Below are positions 2,553-47,556 of a stretch of 64,000 nt of DNA, one piece after another. Positions within the stretch are counted from its first letter, which is position 1, and every line of letters starts with the position of its first letter. The DNA lies in NCBI GenBank assembly GCA_017991395.1, contig JAGOQQ010000001.1:33864-97863 (forward strand). Direction: 5' to 3'. Origin of the DNA: Minisyncoccota bacterium (GTDB lineage Bacteria > Patescibacteriota > Minisyncoccia > Phycocordibacterales > UBA9973). The notes beneath the pieces are model-generated. The model made no database searches, was not told where the DNA came from, and saw only the letters and a program-made list of their open reading frames with translations. The position numbers and the translations under genes are program-made.

Positions 2553-2663
2553 AATCCTCCCTATTTGGAGCACGCATAAAATTCTGCTGAATTTTTGCTA
2601 TACTCGCGCCGTCGCGCTCCGTAATGTTCCAAATAAAGGAGGATTCTGGTTTTTGGAAACCAG
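2553..2663. ncRNA. Structured intergenic element, copy A: 16-bp outer stem enclosing a conserved ~57-nt core with two mini-hairpins, followed by a small hairpin
   Basis: Stem arms aatcctccctatttgga / tccaaataaaggaggatt. The core acgcataaaattctgCtgaatttttgctatactcgcgccGtcgcgctccgtaatgt matches 27564-27620 at all but 2 positions, and those 2 fall in mini-hairpin loops. Strand and function are unknown. Confidence 0.4.
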
Positions 2664-5411: not shown

Positions 5412-6629
5412 ATGTTTACCTATCTAATTTTTGAAATCATTTCCGCCATTATTGGCACAAGTGCTTTAATTATTCTTATTATTCATTTTTATCGCACACG
5501 AACCGCCCGAGACGAAATAAAAAAGAAAACGGTATTCATTCCAATATTGCTCTTCATAATTGCATTTTTAAGTGGACTCATTGCAAACAAAACGTACACA
5601 CCTGATTTTGCAATGCCGGCATTTATGCATTCTCATGCACCAGGTGGACTCGCGCCGTCAATACCATTCGCCAATATCTTAGATTTTTTAATTAACAGAA
5701 ATAAATTTATATCTATTGATGACATCTCAGCAAATCCAAATGATGTACCGACCTCTGCCAATATTCCCGGTCCAGATGGTTTAGTGCACATTGAACTTGT
5801 TGCAAGAGAGGTCATATCGGAAATAGCTCCAGGAATTTATTTCAATTACTGGACATATAACAATCAAGTACCAGGACCAATGCTGCGCGTGCGCGAGGGC
5901 GACACAATACAACTTTCACTAACCAATGACGAAACAAGTCTTCATCATCACAATATAGATCTTCACTCTGTTACTGGACCAGGAGGAGGTGCAAGTCTCA
6001 CACACGTTGCTCCAGGAGAAACAAAAACATTCCAATGGAAAGCACTCAATCCTGGACTTTATATTTACCACTGTGCAATGCCAAATGTGAGCACTCACAA
6101 TTCTCATGGTCAATACGGACTCATAATGGTAGACCCAAAAGACCAATCTGTTGCACTATCTCCTGTTGATAAAGAATTTTATGTAGTTCAAGGTGAGCTC
6201 TACACAGTTGGCCAAATTGGAAAACAAGGATTGGTTCCATTTGATTCGGATGCTCTGCTTGATGGAACGCCGAACTACATCACATTCAATGGAAAAATTG
6301 AAGGGACACCTCGAATGCACGCACAGGTTGGGGATACTATCAGAATGTATGTCGGAAATGGTGGTGTAAATCTTATATCCTCATTCCATGTTATCGGAGA
6401 AATATTTGACAAAGTTTACCCTGAAGCAAACATTGGTGGAACCATTGAAAAGAATGTACAGACCACAGCCGTACTACCAGGAGGAGCGAGTATTGTTGAA
6501 TTCACTGTTGATGTTCCCGGAAAATACCTTTTAGTTGATCATGCGCTGGCTCGAATGAATAAAGGTGCGTGGGCAGTTCTCGAAGTGACTGGTCCTGAAA
6601 ATCCTGAAGTATTCAAAAAAGTTGAATAA
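5412..6629 (+). CDS. nirK: Copper-containing nitrite reductase (NirK, multicopper oxidase family) with an N-terminal membrane anchor
   Basis: Type-1/type-2 Cu ligand motifs: HHHNIDLHSVTGPGGGA, LYIYHCAMPNVSTHNSHGQYGLIMVDP, and a C-terminal cupredoxin domain. N-terminal TM helices are present. Confidence 0.8.
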   Translation: MFTYLIFEIISAIIGTSALIILIIHFYRTRTARDEIKKKTVFIPILLFIIAFLSGLIANKTYTPDFAMPAFMHSHAPGGLAPSIPFANILDFLINRNKFISIDDISANPNDVPTSANIPGPDGLVHIELVAREVISEIAPGIYFNYWTYNNQVPGPMLRVREGDTIQLSLTNDETSLHHHNIDLHSVTGPGGGASLTHVAPGETKTFQWKALNPGLYIYHCAMPNVSTHNSHGQYGLIMVDPKDQSVALSPVDKEFYVVQGELYTVGQIGKQGLVPFDSDALLDGTPNYITFNGKIEGTPRMHAQVGDTIRMYVGNGGVNLISSFHVIGEIFDKVYPEANIGGTIEKNVQTTAVLPGGASIVEFTVDVPGKYLLVDHALARMNKGAWAVLEVTGPENPEVFKKVE

Positions 6630-7385: not shown

Positions 7386-7769
7386 CTATTGAGGCAACTT
7401 GGATTCAAGTTCTTTTATTTTTGTTTCTAAAAGCTCTATTGCTTCAGCATTCTTAGATTCTTGTGCATGTTCAAGTTCTTGAGAAAGTGAATCAATGATA
7501 TCGTTGAGCTCATCCTCGTCTGTATATCCAGCATCGATAAATACTGTACCGATATCAATTATGCTTTTGGCTTGTGCGAGCGGATCGTTAGAAGTATCGA
7601 TTGCCTGTTGCGACGCAAACCACTTATCATATAGTTTCTTAGCATTGACGCCTGTTGGATTATCTTCTGTTTCAAAATAATCCTTGCCTTCGTCATGAAG
7701 CGCCTTGTATGCCAAGACAACCTCCTCTCTACTAGGTACCCCTTCTTGATTATTTATTTCTTTTTCCAT
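7386..7769 (-). CDS. Hypothetical acidic protein
   Basis: 127-aa ORF, D/E-rich, with a coiled-coil-like C-terminus. Confidence 0.45.
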   Translation of the reverse strand: MEKEINNQEGVPSREEVVLAYKALHDEGKDYFETEDNPTGVNAKKLYDKWFASQQAIDTSNDPLAQAKSIIDIGTVFIDAGYTDEDELNDIIDSLSQELEHAQESKNAEAIELLETKIKELESKLPQ

Positions 7770-7824
7770 ATCAAAATTATAACAGACAATATCTGACTTG
7801 CAAATGTAATAAAAAATACTTATA

Positions 7825-22805: not shown

Positions 22806-22895
22806 TGATCTCGACGGGATTCAAACCCGCGACCTCAGAACCAGCTCCTGGCAATCTACTGGTGCTACGCTCTAATCAGACTGAGCTACGAGACC
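22806..22895 (-). tRNA. tRNA-like gene between 23S and 5S with canonical acceptor, D and T arms but no canonical anticodon arm; about 14 nt extra. Possibly intron-containing or a pseudo-tRNA
   Basis: RC reads GGTCTCG TA GCTC AGTCTGATTA GAGC ... GCGGG TTTGAAT CCCGT CGAGATC A. No 5/7/5 stem-loop can be found between the D and T arms. The only local pairing there is ACCAG/CTGGT around a 14-nt loop. Confidence 0.45.
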
Positions 22896-23575: not shown

Positions 23576-24038
23576 CACCTACTTGCCCCACATAGCTTTT
23601 TGAAAAAAGCGACGTGGGGCCATACTCATATATCGACGAAGAGATATGAGTATGTTTTTCTCGTATTACTACGAGGATTGGACTGTAACTTCATCTCTTT
23701 CAAGATGTTTGACATTCAGTCTCTACGGGTCACAGTCATTATAAAATGACATAGTTCCCTCGGTATTGCCCCATCCGCGATTTTCCGCGTTTAATCCGCG
23801 AACTTCTGCGTTTGTCGGGTTCCACCGATATAAGTCAACTTCTCATACACTATTTCTAATGTATGCCGCCGTGAAATGTACTTACTGTACATTCATGGTC
23901 TTGTCTCTGTAAACATAAGTATTTTTACAAATACTTCCCTCAACGGATTCAAACTGCCCAATGCGTAGAACCTTATTCGTAGAGCGCAGAGCGTCGATCA
24001 AGATGCAATTGCATTTTGAATCAAACGTTTTACGTTCC
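23576..24038 (-). other. ~463-nt insertion in 23S domain V at the GAACGU|CGUGAGACAG junction (E. coli ~2593-2596 region); candidate ORF-less group I intron
   Basis: Exon-like TTAGAACGT (ends in U) lies upstream. The insert ends ...TAGGTG (terminal G) directly before CGTGAGACAGG. There is no ORF >=60 aa on the rRNA strand inside it. Confidence 0.5.
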
Positions 24039-26571: not shown

Positions 26572-27545
26572 ATTCAAAAATATTTAGCCTTGCCAGTTAG
26601 TTCTGGCAGATTCCTCCAAGCTATTCGTGTCTTAGAGTACTCAAGAGCAGTAACGAAAGAGATATAATTATTTAAGTTACAGGACTATCACCTTCTTTGG
26701 TCGTGCTTTCCAGCACCTTCACATATAATTATATTTTTTGACTCTTCTCGTAAAACGAAGTTACTGTCTTACAACCCCTCACAGTAATATCCGAAGATAT
26801 TTCGTAAGGTTTGGGCTTCTCCGGTTTCGCTCGCCGCTACTCACGGAATTCATATTTGTTTCTTTTCCTCCAGGTACTGAGATGTTTCACTTCCCTGGGT
26901 ATGCATCTACACGTCAAGCGCATAGATTATCTCGAATAACCGAGATAGAGTTTCCTCATTCAGAAATTTCCGGATCAAAGGTTGTTAGGCACCTCCCCGA
27001 AACTTATCGCAGCCACACCACGTCTTTCATCGCTTTTTGAATCCTAGGCATCCACCATATGCTCTTAATTTCCTATTAGGAAATTTAAAAACCACTAAGT
27101 ATAGATATTTCTGCATATATCTATACGACAACATCACCGTACTTCAAACCGCTTCGAAGTACAGTGAACTCTGTTTTCAATACACAAAAAGAAAAGACCC
27201 TTAACTGTGTGTATCGAAACAGGATGAACTTTTCAAACAACCAGCCTTTCTGTCGTGAACTAAAAAACCGCCTGTTGGCGGTAAAAGAAAACCCCAAAGG
27301 ATTAACCTTTACGCCAACGAAGTGATTTTTTATTACTTACCATATCGTGAGAAAGAGTATATATGAAAGCAAAACCAAAGTCAAGTGATTTTTGCCTTGC
27401 AGAACAAGGCTTTTTCCCCTATTCCATACAAGCCTTATATTGCTTAATTTTAAAGGGAAAATGAGATTTTTTTGGGTTAAATTTTTTGATTATTTTTAGG
27501 TATTTTTATAGCTTTTTCCATCTTTAGAATTTTATTTTTCTTATC

Positions 27546-27655
27546 AATCCCCCGCATCTGAAACACGCATAAAATTCTGGTGAATTTTTGCTATACTCGC
27601 GCCTTCGCGCTCCGTAATGTTTCAGATGCGGGGGATTCTGTATTCAGGAATACAA
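27546..27655. ncRNA. Structured intergenic element, copy B (see 2553-2663): perfect 18-bp outer stem, conserved core, trailing small hairpin
   Basis: Outer stem atcccccgcatctgaaac / gtttcagatgcgggggat. The core differs from copy A at only 2 positions. It is followed by tgtattc-ag-gaataca. Confidence 0.4.
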
Positions 27656-27730
27656 AAATAACACAAAGACATCTAAGAAAAAAACTCCCTTGATCGTAAT
27701 CATATCAAGAGAGTTTTCAACGGAATACTA

Positions 27731-28537
27731 TTAATTCATCGGAAATGTTGGCCCAAAGCCAATCGCAGTACCTGAGGCACCAGGAGCTTGAAAGTTTATT
27801 CCAGCAAAGCCAACATTGAATAATCCATCGGTAACAAATGTTGAGTCTGGTATATCAGCTTTAATAGTAAAAGTAATATTACCATTTGCCTTTACGAAAA
27901 TAGGATTTGGAAACACCCAAGCATGATACGATGTACCACCGCCAGGCAATTGATAGAATGAAGATGCAGGAATTGTAGAAATCAAAGTTGTACCTTTGTA
28001 GATCTTAAAATTTGTAACTTTCTGCACTGGATTGACGGGAGTACCTAGCCAAAGCCCGTTAATACATACATCTTGATTACCTGTTGCAAAAAACCGAACC
28101 TTCGCCATTTCAAAATCAGCAATAGGAGGATGGCTAACGCTGAAATAACCAGGAATCGGAGTAGATAGTGAGGTCATAGAAAATGTCCCTGAACTTAAAC
28201 CTGGAGAACATACACTTGCACTGGTTCGTAATAACGTAGCACTGTCGGGAATATTAATATTAGAAGTATTGTCGCTTGTTTGATTAAAATTAAATGAAGT
28301 TAAAATTTCAGCATCAGTTTTTTCTATTAGACTCTCTTTATTTAGAGAATCGTTTTCAGAAAGAAGAAAATTATTATCCTTTTCCGTTATTAAAGCTGCG
28401 CCCTCCTGTCTTCCTATTGAAGTGAGAGGTATCATGTTGCCGATGATTATTCCTAACACAAGACTAACAAGAACGAACACAGCACTAAAAGTATTATTCT
28501 TTTGTGGATGAACCGCGGAATTCATTATTGGTTCCAT
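27731..28537 (-). CDS. Hypothetical secreted/anchored protein
   Basis: N-terminal TM (FSAVFVLVSLVLGIIIGNMIPL). S/T/N-rich, with a Gly-rich C-terminus. Confidence 0.45.
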   Translation of the reverse strand: MEPIMNSAVHPQKNNTFSAVFVLVSLVLGIIIGNMIPLTSIGRQEGAALITEKDNNFLLSENDSLNKESLIEKTDAEILTSFNFNQTSDNTSNINIPDSATLLRTSASVCSPGLSSGTFSMTSLSTPIPGYFSVSHPPIADFEMAKVRFFATGNQDVCINGLWLGTPVNPVQKVTNFKIYKGTTLISTIPASSFYQLPGGGTSYHAWVFPNPIFVKANGNITFTIKADIPDSTFVTDGLFNVGFAGINFQAPGASGTAIGFGPTFPMN

Positions 28538-36436: not shown

Positions 36437-36477
36437 AAAGTTAAGCGTAAAGCGTGGAACGTAGAACGTTGACCATT

Positions 36478-36524
36478 CAAATTACAAAAGAGCGGCGCCG
36501 TAGGCGCCGCTCTTTTGTAATTTG
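36478..36524. terminator. Long palindromic terminator (22-bp stem) after rplE; near-identical to the one after fusA
   Basis: caaattacaaaagagcggcgcc gta ggcgccgctcttttgtaatttg, with a T-tract on the mRNA side. Confidence 0.65.
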
Positions 36525-36629
36525 AGATTCTGAAACAAGTTCAGAATGACACAATGCAAATTCAGAGTGAAAATTGCAGATTTGATTTCTTCTGCGCCTA
36601 GTCAGCGTTAAGTCCGCGACTGTCAGCGT

Positions 36630-47512: not shown

Positions 47513-47556
47513 AAATTCAAAAGAGCGGCGCCCTTGGGCGCCGCTCTTTTGAATTT
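47513..47556. terminator. Long palindromic terminator (20-bp stem) abutting the fusA stop; paralog of 36478-36524
   Basis: aaattcaaaagagcggcgcc cttg ggcgccgctcttttgaattt. Confidence 0.65.

Follow-up and report, generated by a model that had tools for sequence, protein, structure and literature searches.

A low-copy, ~100-nt palindromic element with covarying arms and an invariant promoter-like core in Paceibacteria, possibly a relocating DNA repeat

A 64,000-nt stretch of a Minisyncoccota bacterium genome (contig JAGOQQ010000001.1, positions 33,864 to 97,863; hereafter the window) contains two copies, A and B, of a folded element of ~100 nt. They represent a new, undescribed element family, of a familiar general kind and of unproven function, with at least 20 further members in genomes and metagenomes of the Paceibacteria (Parcubacteria, candidate phyla radiation, CPR), as established by pattern scans and a covariance model. 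The reading that we tentatively favour, with a probability of about 0.4, is that of a low-copy relocating palindromic DNA element, akin to the miniature inverted-repeat transposable elements (MITEs) or to the repetitive extragenic palindromes (REPs), that carries a portable extended -10 promoter. What must be preserved would be the folded single strand or an extruded cruciform, and the enzyme moving or copying the element presumably recognises this folded form, while the core in its duplex state would carry a predicted, outward-firing extended -10 promoter of the host's own type. Mobility, perhaps through a single-stranded DNA intermediate, would then be the reason for conservation. What is unusual about the family is that variable, complementary arms enclose an invariant centre, which is at once a three-way junction and a consensus promoter.

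A 56-nt core pattern with two N positions matches the window exactly twice, both times on the + strand (Table 1), and returns no match in 100 shuffles of it (chance expectation 0). The original prediction, made from the letters of the window, had described two copies with a near-identical core, and the only two differences between them do fall in the loops of two small hairpins, P2 and P3. The common flank GGATTCTG and the small hairpin following it (P4) are likewise present in both copies, the P4 stems differing in a compensatory manner, and folding yields the same structure for the two copies (z = -5.9 for A and -9.1 for B, as compared with shuffles). In contrast, the outer stems (P1) are not entirely different, as had been stated: 13 of 19 positions are identical between the 5' arms AATCCTCCCTATTTGGAGC and AATCCCCCGCATCTGAAAC of copies A and B, and the stem differences comprise four fully compensated pairs, one G.T wobble, and one mismatch or bulge in copy A. 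BLAST comparison of the surroundings (1.3 kb) confines the similarity to ~135 nt at 79% identity. Therefore, the pair does not result from a segmental duplication, in agreement with the original prediction.

Relatives were sought with a junction-based pattern scan of one genome per species, a later scan of metagenomes, and then a covariance model, R1. The per-species scan reports true relatives in 'Paceibacterota', in 'Parcubacteria LiPW_30' (two copies on one 680-kb scaffold), and in two metagenome-assembled genomes labelled Saccharibacteria, together with five chance matches, and the metagenome scan provides ~8 more distinct members. R1 recovers all the members found by pattern as well as divergent copies that the pattern missed: a third LiPW_30 copy, second copies in L018, L021, and L059 (L-numbers, L002 to L060, designate related loci outside the window), the distant GC-rich member L060, located between atpD and atpC, and 'type 4' relatives devoid of P1. 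The further copies that the original prediction proposed to look for with a covariance model thus exist, at a density of two in the 64-kb window, three in the LiPW_30 scaffold, and two to three per genome. Applied to the window with filters off, the covariance model reports the two copies only; the remaining weak matches, which involve P1 alone, are ordinary long GC-rich terminator palindromes and were rejected as family members. Pattern matches upstream of yceD-like genes (Bryobacterales) and in other phyla were also rejected, being chance matches or unrelated promoters without P1 and P2. Among viral contigs, a relaxed pattern gave four chance matches, none of which is confirmed by the covariance model. 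Rfam 15 does not return any match to the element at the gathering threshold over the whole window, and only noise at E<=10 for both window loci and the divergent relatives. A literature search on structured RNAs of CPR bacteria and Parcubacteria found nothing relevant. Comparison between loci identifies no homologous flanks beyond P1, and the small open reading frames (ORFs) starting from a conserved ATG or lying on the reverse strand are unconserved in both length and sequence.

The element folds into a near-perfect closing helix of 17-21 bp, P1, around an almost invariant 57-nt core that forms a compact three-way junction. P2 is a 10-bp hairpin with a bulged T/U and a YTGNTR loop (AAAATTC-TGNT-GAATTTT, extended by GCA/TGC, in the window copies), and P3 is a 4+4-bp hairpin with a small internal loop (GCGC-CNTC-GCGC in the window copies). 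In the refined fold, P1 (17-21 bp) is followed by NC, P2a (3 bp), the bulged T/U, P2b (7 bp, loop TGNT), and a T, and then by an A-T pair, a bulged A and TAC/GTA, an internal loop TC/TCC, P3b (4 bp), and the 3' arm P1'. Among 15 full-length members, 91.5% of the alignment cells are paired and changes on both sides occur in 23 of 33 pairs; with the refined structure, 20 cores exhibit 98.3% paired cells and both-side changes in 18 of 24 pairs. None of 500 shuffles reaches the value observed for the core, and controls in which the structure was slid along the sequence give 36-50%. RNAalifold, run unguided, returns the same three-way junction with double changes in 29 of 36 pairs. Every helix displays double changes across 19-21 members, well above the shuffled and slid controls: the folded structure is clearly maintained, its pairing being under selection or otherwise preserved. 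The covariation claimed in the original prediction therefore holds, with the reservation that its strength comes from the relatives found elsewhere, the two window copies alone giving weak covariation.

A number of telling changes lie within the promoter-like motif. In P2a, GCA/TGC becomes GCC/GGC in L052b and L049b, and GTA/TAC in L059c, while L050 and L051 lack both bases of the middle P2a pair and with them the 'TG'. TATACT is replaced by TATGCT together with a GTAA to GCAA change in L018b and L059c. In L051, TATACT becomes TCTACT together with a change of AATGT to AAGGT, which uncovers one more pair and eliminates the A essential to a -10 motif. L060 keeps a perfect P1 of at least 18 bp, an 11-bp P2 with the loop TGCT, and an identical P3b, and has no TATACT. 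The unpaired core positions (loops, bulge, junction) are all invariant between distant lineages.

Compensatory changes that support a fold are what is expected of a structured RNA in general, but alone they are no proof of RNA function, and the step from covariation to RNA taken in the original prediction does not follow. P1 of 21 copies comprises 361 Watson-Crick pairs, 5 G.U pairs, 8 A.C pairs, 4 transversion mismatches, and 4 bulges, while the core contains one wobble on the TGCTATACT strand versus three changes that would wobble on the other strand. The strand-specific signature of an RNA, with G.U tolerated and A.C avoided, is thus found neither in P1 nor in the core. Run on both strands, as had been suggested, RNAalifold reports the same fold with energies of -41.8 kcal/mol on the TGCTATACT strand and -46.5 kcal/mol on the opposite one, and the strand favoured by single-sequence folding energies varies from copy to copy. 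The element may act as RNA or as DNA, and through either strand. Transcription signals of the element's own are not apparent: an extended -10 upstream of P1 is absent in 16 of 17 copies, the sole match lying inside a coding region, no consistent extended -10 occurs ahead of P1 on either strand, and no promoter or terminator is conserved at a fixed distance on either strand, terminators being found downstream of the element in some contexts only. Some copies begin 6-16 nt past a stop codon and end 46-75 nt ahead of the next start. With respect to the neighbouring genes, the element has no fixed orientation: a divergent gene lies upstream in 9 of 13 contexts, and a convergent one downstream in 7 of 12 unique contexts. 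Local GC skew, a crude proxy for replication direction, is positive on the element strand for 8 copies and negative for 8 of the 16 (two within ±0.015), and reveals no replication-strand bias. The neighbouring genes encode unrelated housekeeping functions (rpoD, topA, gyrA, gyrB, recA, efp, frr, lysS, thrS, rpmE, holB, aldolase, 23S). A passive DNA element that relocates accounts better than an independently expressed RNA gene for four observations: no strand signature, no transcription signals of its own, copies wedged tightly between genes or behind terminators, and the gain, loss, and relocation of copies described below.

Gain, loss, and relocation, which the original prediction had not foreseen, are visible at orthologous sites, and genomes hold more than one copy, as in mobile repeats in general. 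The spacer between tag and the next gene (tag|X) contains a copy in the window and in L036, whose neighbour protein is 69% identical, and it is devoid of the element in L038-L040 (neighbour 77%) and in L041-L043 (81%, with a spacer of only 54 nt). In a syntenic 20-kb region of LiPW_30-like genomes (L049-L059), in which L049-L052 are 86-94% identical to each other and L059 is 76-78% identical to L052, the PfkB|aldolase spacer harbours a 'type 2' copy in L052-54, nothing in L051 and L059, and an unrelated insert of ~270 nt in L049 and L050. This insert (L049 ~5815-6080, L050 ~6235-6500) is GC-richer, starts with a perfect 13-bp hairpin CTCCCGCGAACAA/TTGTTCGCGGGAG, has its own CTATACT, and does not match any Rfam family. 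Upstream of rpmE, three different element types occupy the same position. The type 2 element is found at this rpmE site in L059 and at the PfkB site in L052, and the rpmE site also shows signs of recombination between flank and element alleles. A P1-less relative of ~85 nt lies antisense in the last codons of prfA (L050 11266-11360; also L055, L057, and L058), where the insertion truncates the gene in one lineage only, and is absent from L049, L051, L052, and L059. In addition, the short-read contigs that carry the genes adjoining copies A and B end exactly at the core, and one orthologous contig starts inside it, as would be expected of any repeat that exceeds the assembly k-mer in length.

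The ends of the copies are less regular. A systematic search for flanking direct repeats returned one above chance among 16 copies: L018b (L018 8045-8195) has the 15-nt repeat TTTTTTTCGAGATAC on both sides, and the outer 7 bp of its P1 are provided by the first repeat. The two inverted L018 copies bracket a 112-residue orphan gene inserted between greA and lysS. Outside the systematic search, the 13-nt direct repeat TATGGGCGGATAT lies on either side of a block of ~165 nt with a P1-less type-4 relative (L016 ~7625-7810). The 5' end of a tRNA gene, encoded on the other strand, falls within one of the two repeat copies, an arrangement that resembles an att-type duplication. L021b contains two nested insertions and still has a perfect P1, and L018, L052, and L059 each have a pair of copies that face each other, with a gene, an operon, or a short spacer in between. 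'Empty' P1 palindromes, expected if the core entered pre-existing hairpins, were not found in ~0.6 Mb of sequence. A Y1_Tnp gene (IS200/RAYT-like, RAYT standing for REP-associated tyrosine transposase; 221-228 residues), the only gene of this kind seen nearby, is present in L050 (360-1025) and L051 (592-1278), and is missing at the same site in L052 and L049, L052 retaining a hairpin remnant. This gene is flanked by ACTTGGAGGTTCAACCTCCAAGT, which is unrelated to the element, and its 21-nt palindrome ACTTGG(A/C)GGT..ACC..CCAAGT occurs in two in-frame internal copies encoding KLGG.T.KL. It was therefore rejected as the partner of the element, as it possesses its own, different palindrome.

A number of observations weigh against a relocating DNA element. 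Its copy number is low for a mobile repeat, no linked transposase or recombinase is seen in the inspected neighbourhoods, and neither conserved terminal repeats nor a regular target-site duplication was found. The logic of conservation, with variable arms and an invariant centre, is the reverse of that of classical MITEs, and an invariant junction together with a pair deleted on both sides is typical of functional RNAs. Clean junctions between filled and empty sites were never obtained, because the spacers are too diverged, and the allele differences at the rpmE site could stem from recombination rather than transposition. Ordinary terminators of this genome also have perfect, wobble-free 20-bp hairpins, and therefore a perfect P1 alone is no proof of a role at the DNA level. 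Lastly, L060 is oriented in sense inside the atp operon, and hence must be transcribed.

Some of these points also sustain the main rival reading, possible although somewhat doubtful, in which the copies are sibling small non-coding RNAs (sRNAs), two to three paralogues per genome, each transcribed over the whole element. P1 would be the closing helix or an RNase III stem, the junction would bind a conserved protein or machine, and the likeness to a promoter would be incidental or a by-product. Covariation in every helix, including the pairs of the '-10', P2a, and the pair lost in L050/L051, would be explained in this way, as would the invariant loops, bulge, and junction, and the retention of the fold in L051, devoid of the essential -10 A, and in L060, which has no -10 at all. 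The low copy number and intergenic position suit sibling sRNAs, L060 lies in sense in an operon, and terminators are found 30-70 nt downstream on the TGCTATACT strand of copy B, L013, L007, and L022. On the opposite strand, which RNAalifold slightly prefers, the loops and internal loop are purine-rich (GGA/GA, GNNG). However, the G.U to A.C ratios, 5:8 in P1 and 1:3 in the core, do not allow a strand to be assigned; the family has no Rfam counterpart even at E<=10 and no promoter or terminator at a fixed distance; and several copies are wedged behind stop codons or beyond terminators, those of copy B, L013, L007, and L022 being bidirectional and standing between the element and the convergent gene. 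Copies are also dispensable or relocated among close relatives, and one relative lies antisense in a coding region.

The promoter-like motif also enters into further readings. In both window copies, TGCTATACT fits the TGn + TAnnnT consensus of the host's sigma-70 extended -10. The motif TGNTATAMT occurs 15 times in the window versus 4.8 expected, a number that no shuffle reaches, and 12 of the 15 matches are on the gene-rich minus strand, upstream of genes; the extended -10-like sequence pointed out in the original prediction is thus of a genuine host promoter type. Flanking genes in the relatives have TGTTAAAAT, TGTTATAAT, or TGGTATAAT 7-11 nt before their start codons. Given this enrichment and host usage, the duplex of the element should resemble a good promoter. 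That genes typically start 7-11 nt after the extended -10 box (e.g. L010 5568-5600, L018 8556-8580, L021 4343-4370) implies that mRNAs of the window and of related loci are leaderless or near-leaderless.

Within the element, four of the six '-10' bases as well as the TG are base-paired in the fold, and they are changed with compensation or lost in some members. Most canonical members retain the motif. L050, L051, and L059c have lost the TG, L051 has also lost A-11, and L060 and the type 4 relatives have no -10, the motif-less members keeping the fold. Promoter function is therefore not the sole constraint, and perhaps not the primary one. A transcript initiated 6-9 nt past the -10 would begin in the P3 loop, excluding P2 and the 5' arms of P1 and P3, and therefore cannot explain the covariation of P2, P1, and P3. 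Moreover, in most contexts the motif is directed into a convergent gene. It is probably no accident, yet it does not explain everything.

An improbable reading makes the element a cis-acting DNA module of the host, in which a strong extended -10 set in inverted repeats, through a supercoiling-sensitive hairpin or cruciform, would switch or insulate the neighbouring genes. The promoter type enriched at gene starts agrees with it, and so does the extent of the element, which spans ~-58 to +36 of the promoter as read from the sequence, roughly the footprint of RNA polymerase. The neighbour is often a divergent gene whose promoter stands back-to-back with the element and whose start is 46-75 nt away, and gyrA, gyrB, and topA are among the neighbours. 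However, firing into a convergent gene, as would occur in most contexts, is hard to reconcile with such a module, every flanking gene examined has its own promoter beside the start codon, the 57-nt spacer between the arms disfavours cruciform extrusion, the members without a -10 retain the fold, and the element is not fixed at orthologous sites.

Two related readings, both very unlikely, invoke mimicry of a promoter. In the first one, the folded element, as RNA or as transient single-stranded DNA, would mimic an open extended -10 promoter by displaying a TG-bearing duplex, an unpaired TATACT, a GC-rich discriminator hairpin, and a long downstream duplex, and would bind the sigma-70-type holoenzyme of these minimal bacteria, being a functional 6S analogue of 100 nt that is also mobile. 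In the second one, yet harder to credit, it would be a mini-6S-like decoy that titrates the RNA polymerase holoenzyme: the folded strand, with an unpaired TATACT beside a TG-bearing duplex, would look like the fork junction of an open promoter of the extended -10 type. The geometry is suggestive, since the paired TGC that ends P2 precedes TATACT, after which come a GC-rich 'discriminator' hairpin and P1 as the long 'downstream' duplex. The extended -10 promoters of the hosts need no -35, and two or three paralogues per genome parallel 6S-1 and 6S-2. In contrast, the supported fold has four of the six -10 bases paired and a template-side 'bubble' of only 2 nt, the structure persists where A-11 (L051), the TG (L050), or the whole -10 (L060) is lost, and the element has no similarity to 6S RNA in Rfam and is far shorter than any known 6S.

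An inverton, in which P1 would provide the inverted repeats for a site-specific invertase flipping the 57-bp promoter segment, has hardly anything to recommend it beyond a promoter between inverted repeats of 17-21 bp and the mixed orientation relative to neighbours. The orientation of the core is constant at tag|X (window, L002/3/5, L036), at PfkB|aldolase (L052-54, L028, L029), and at rpmE (L049-L059, L031); 57 bp is too short for recombinase-mediated inversion, the covariation of P2 and P3 would be unexplained, and copies within one genome have different arms. A cis-regulatory RNA (riboswitch or leader) acting on the downstream gene, which the original prediction had listed and an aptamer-like three-way junction with a variable closing stem might suggest, a recent segmental duplication, to which the presence of both copies in one window might point, and chance are refuted by the pattern and shuffle counts, the flank BLAST, the relatives in many genomes, and the orientation and function of the neighbours, the downstream gene being on the other strand for both window copies and most relatives, and mixed orientation with unrelated neighbours ruling out a cis-regulatory RNA for one gene class.

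Among known systems, the element would work most like the Correia or REP-type palindromic repeats, or alternatively like sibling sRNAs. The Correia elements (NEMIS) of Neisseria are intergenic sequences of ~100-150 bp that form long hairpins in transcripts, have functional promoters, and vary in presence between strains; they possess conserved 26-bp terminal inverted repeats, a TA target duplication, a central site for integration host factor (IHF), and hundreds of copies. The present element resembles them as an intergenic palindrome of similar size with a predicted promoter and with presence/absence variation, but differs from them by its variable arms, invariant centre, absence of a regular duplication, and two to three copies per genome. 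REP/REPIN sequences (RAYT, a Y1 HUH enzyme) and PATE elements (IS200/IS605) are hairpin repeats without terminal repeats or target duplications that are recognised as folded single-stranded DNA. In their recognition, bulged bases and loops are important. REPs are simple palindromes of 20-40 nt that share a conserved GTAG and are usually abundant. The element is similarly an intergenic hairpin without terminal repeats, and a RAYT-like Y1_Tnp gene exists in related genomes. However, this gene is flanked by and contains another palindrome, and no bias in the orientation of the element was detected with local GC skew. In IS608, the end hairpins resemble each other, whereas P2 and P3 are unlike each other.

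The sibling sRNAs and 6S RNA (RF00013) measure ~100-200 nt and have a long closing helix, a conserved core, and two to five intergenic paralogues, all of which the element recalls in size, helix, core, and number; unlike them, it lacks a promoter or terminator, a strand signal, and an Rfam match. With 6S RNA proper (150-200 nt, a closing stem, a large central bubble, and a long terminal stem), it differs by its ~100 nt, its three-way junction with a 2-nt 5' side, the lack of a 6S-sized bubble and upstream stem, and the lack of a match with RF00013. The attC sites of integrons are recombination sites conserved in their single-strand fold, as the element may be, but have conserved ends (R''/L'', L'/R') and a variable centre, whereas here the centre is conserved, the stems vary, and no integrase context is seen. 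Single-strand promoters and ssi (single-strand initiation) signals, such as Frpo of the F plasmid and the minus-strand origin of M13, belong to plasmids and phages and have their -35 and -10 duplexed within a stem. The element shares with them a promoter-like sequence on a folded single strand, but is chromosomal and intergenic, with a -10 located at the junction and partly paired with non-promoter sequence. As in invertons, inverted repeats flank a promoter, predicted in this case; in contrast, no flipped alleles exist among orthologous sets, the segment is 57 bp long, and its internal hairpins covary. The element thus fails to display the defining features of a classical MITE (the arms differ within one genome and 1 of 16 copies has a direct repeat above chance), of REP-RAYT, attC, inverton, and 6S systems, of a riboswitch or leader (7 of 12 unique contexts have the downstream gene on the opposite strand, with neighbours ranging from rpoD, topA, gyrA/B, and recA to aldolase and 23S), and of any Rfam family.

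CPR genomes such as those of Paceibacteria span ~0.6-1 Mb with very short spacers, and we know of almost no non-coding repertoire described for them. In this setting, an invariant 57-nt core with a few moving copies would be either an uncharacterised small RNA or a new type of miniature mobile element, the latter recognised by structure and carrying a ready-made promoter. Either outcome would offer a handle on gene regulation or genome dynamics in these uncultivated symbionts, although the more mundane reading as a selfish repeat remains plausible. The element also accounts for recurrent contig breaks in the short-read assemblies of these bacteria.

Table 1. Features of the two window copies and of the region around copy B (positions in the window)
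Feature	Position	Strand	Remarks
Copy A, P1 5' arm aatcctccctatttggagc	2553-2571	+	Partner 2626-2645: 16 Watson-Crick, 1 G.T, 1 A.C, 1 bulge
Copy A, conserved core	2572-2627	+	Exact pattern match; helices backed by family covariation
Copy A, core P2	P2a 2574-2576/2596-2598; P2b 2578-2584/2589-2595		J (AC) precedes; bulged T 2577; loop TGCT
Copy A, core P3	P3a 2601-2603/2621-2623; P3b 2606-2609/2614-2617		A2600-T2625 pair; internal loop TC/TCC; loop CGTC
Copy A, extended -10-like TGCTATACT	2596-2604	+	Within P2a, junction, and P3a; matches window-enriched motif
Copy A, P1 3' arm gttccaaataaaggaggatt	2626-2645	+	Folding, pair counts
Copy A, P4 hairpin ctggttt-ttgg-aaaccag	2646-2663	+	Folded
Copy B, P1 5' arm aatcccccgcatctgaaac	27546-27564	+	Perfect pairing with 27619-27637
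Copy B, conserved core	27565-27620	+	Pattern match, folding, family covariation
Copy B, core P2	P2a 27567-27569/27589-27591; P2b 27571-27577/27582-27588		Bulged T 27570; loop TGGT
Copy B, core P3	P3a 27594-27596/27614-27616; P3b 27599-27602/27607-27610		A27593-T27618 pair; loop CTTC
Copy B, extended -10-like TGCTATACT	27589-27597	+	Motif enrichment
Copy B, P1 3' arm gtttcagatgcgggggatt	27619-27637	+	Folding, pair counts
Copy B, P4 hairpin tgtatt-cagg-aataca	27639-27654	+	Folded
Copy B, candidate outer helix P0	27532-27538 with 27655-27661		Would enclose P1 and P4; read from sequence
Bidirectional terminator near copy B	27681-27722		A-run, 11-bp imperfect hairpin, T-run; read from sequence, folded
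Probable 23S rRNA promoter TTGACT-17-TATACT	27356-27384	-	~160 nt from copy B, directed away

The P4 hairpin is specific to a 'window-type' subfamily, and is made of other stem sequences in copy B, L007, and the second L018 copy. Both window copies sit between co-directional minus-strand units. As the original prediction had indicated, copy A lies between tag and the next gene, more precisely between the stop (2743) of the Tag glycosylase gene (PF03352; 2743-3330, minus) and the next minus-strand ORF, and copy B is located 468 nt upstream of the 23S rRNA 5' end (27078, minus), close to the predicted ~480 nt. On its other side, copy B is bordered by the stop of the minus-strand ORF 27731-28537, and the bidirectional terminator listed in Table 1 shields it from read-through of this gene, whose orthologue search returned that gene alone. 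A terminator-like hairpin with a T-run on the + strand (27394-27410) abuts the -35 of the minus-strand 23S promoter, with no + strand gene upstream.

The 23S rRNA gene contains a group I intron (23659-23922, minus; Rfam RF00028, 50.5 bits), and its match extends over 3795 nt for a model of 2925 positions, which maybe reflects more than one insertion. Between 23S and 5S, Rfam reports a tRNA match of 90 nt (42.7 bits; 22806-22895, minus) that is not called by ARAGORN and could represent a tRNA interrupted by an intron or otherwise unusual. Lastly, a perfect GC-rich palindrome of 20-23 bp, AAAAGAGCGGCGCC-NNNN-GGCGCCGCTCTTTT, flanked by A/T-runs, is found at 36477-36526 and 47513-47556 of the window and at ~1070-1110 of L007. 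The copies, found at several loci and also in a related genome, are nearly identical and suggest a repeated family of bidirectional terminators.

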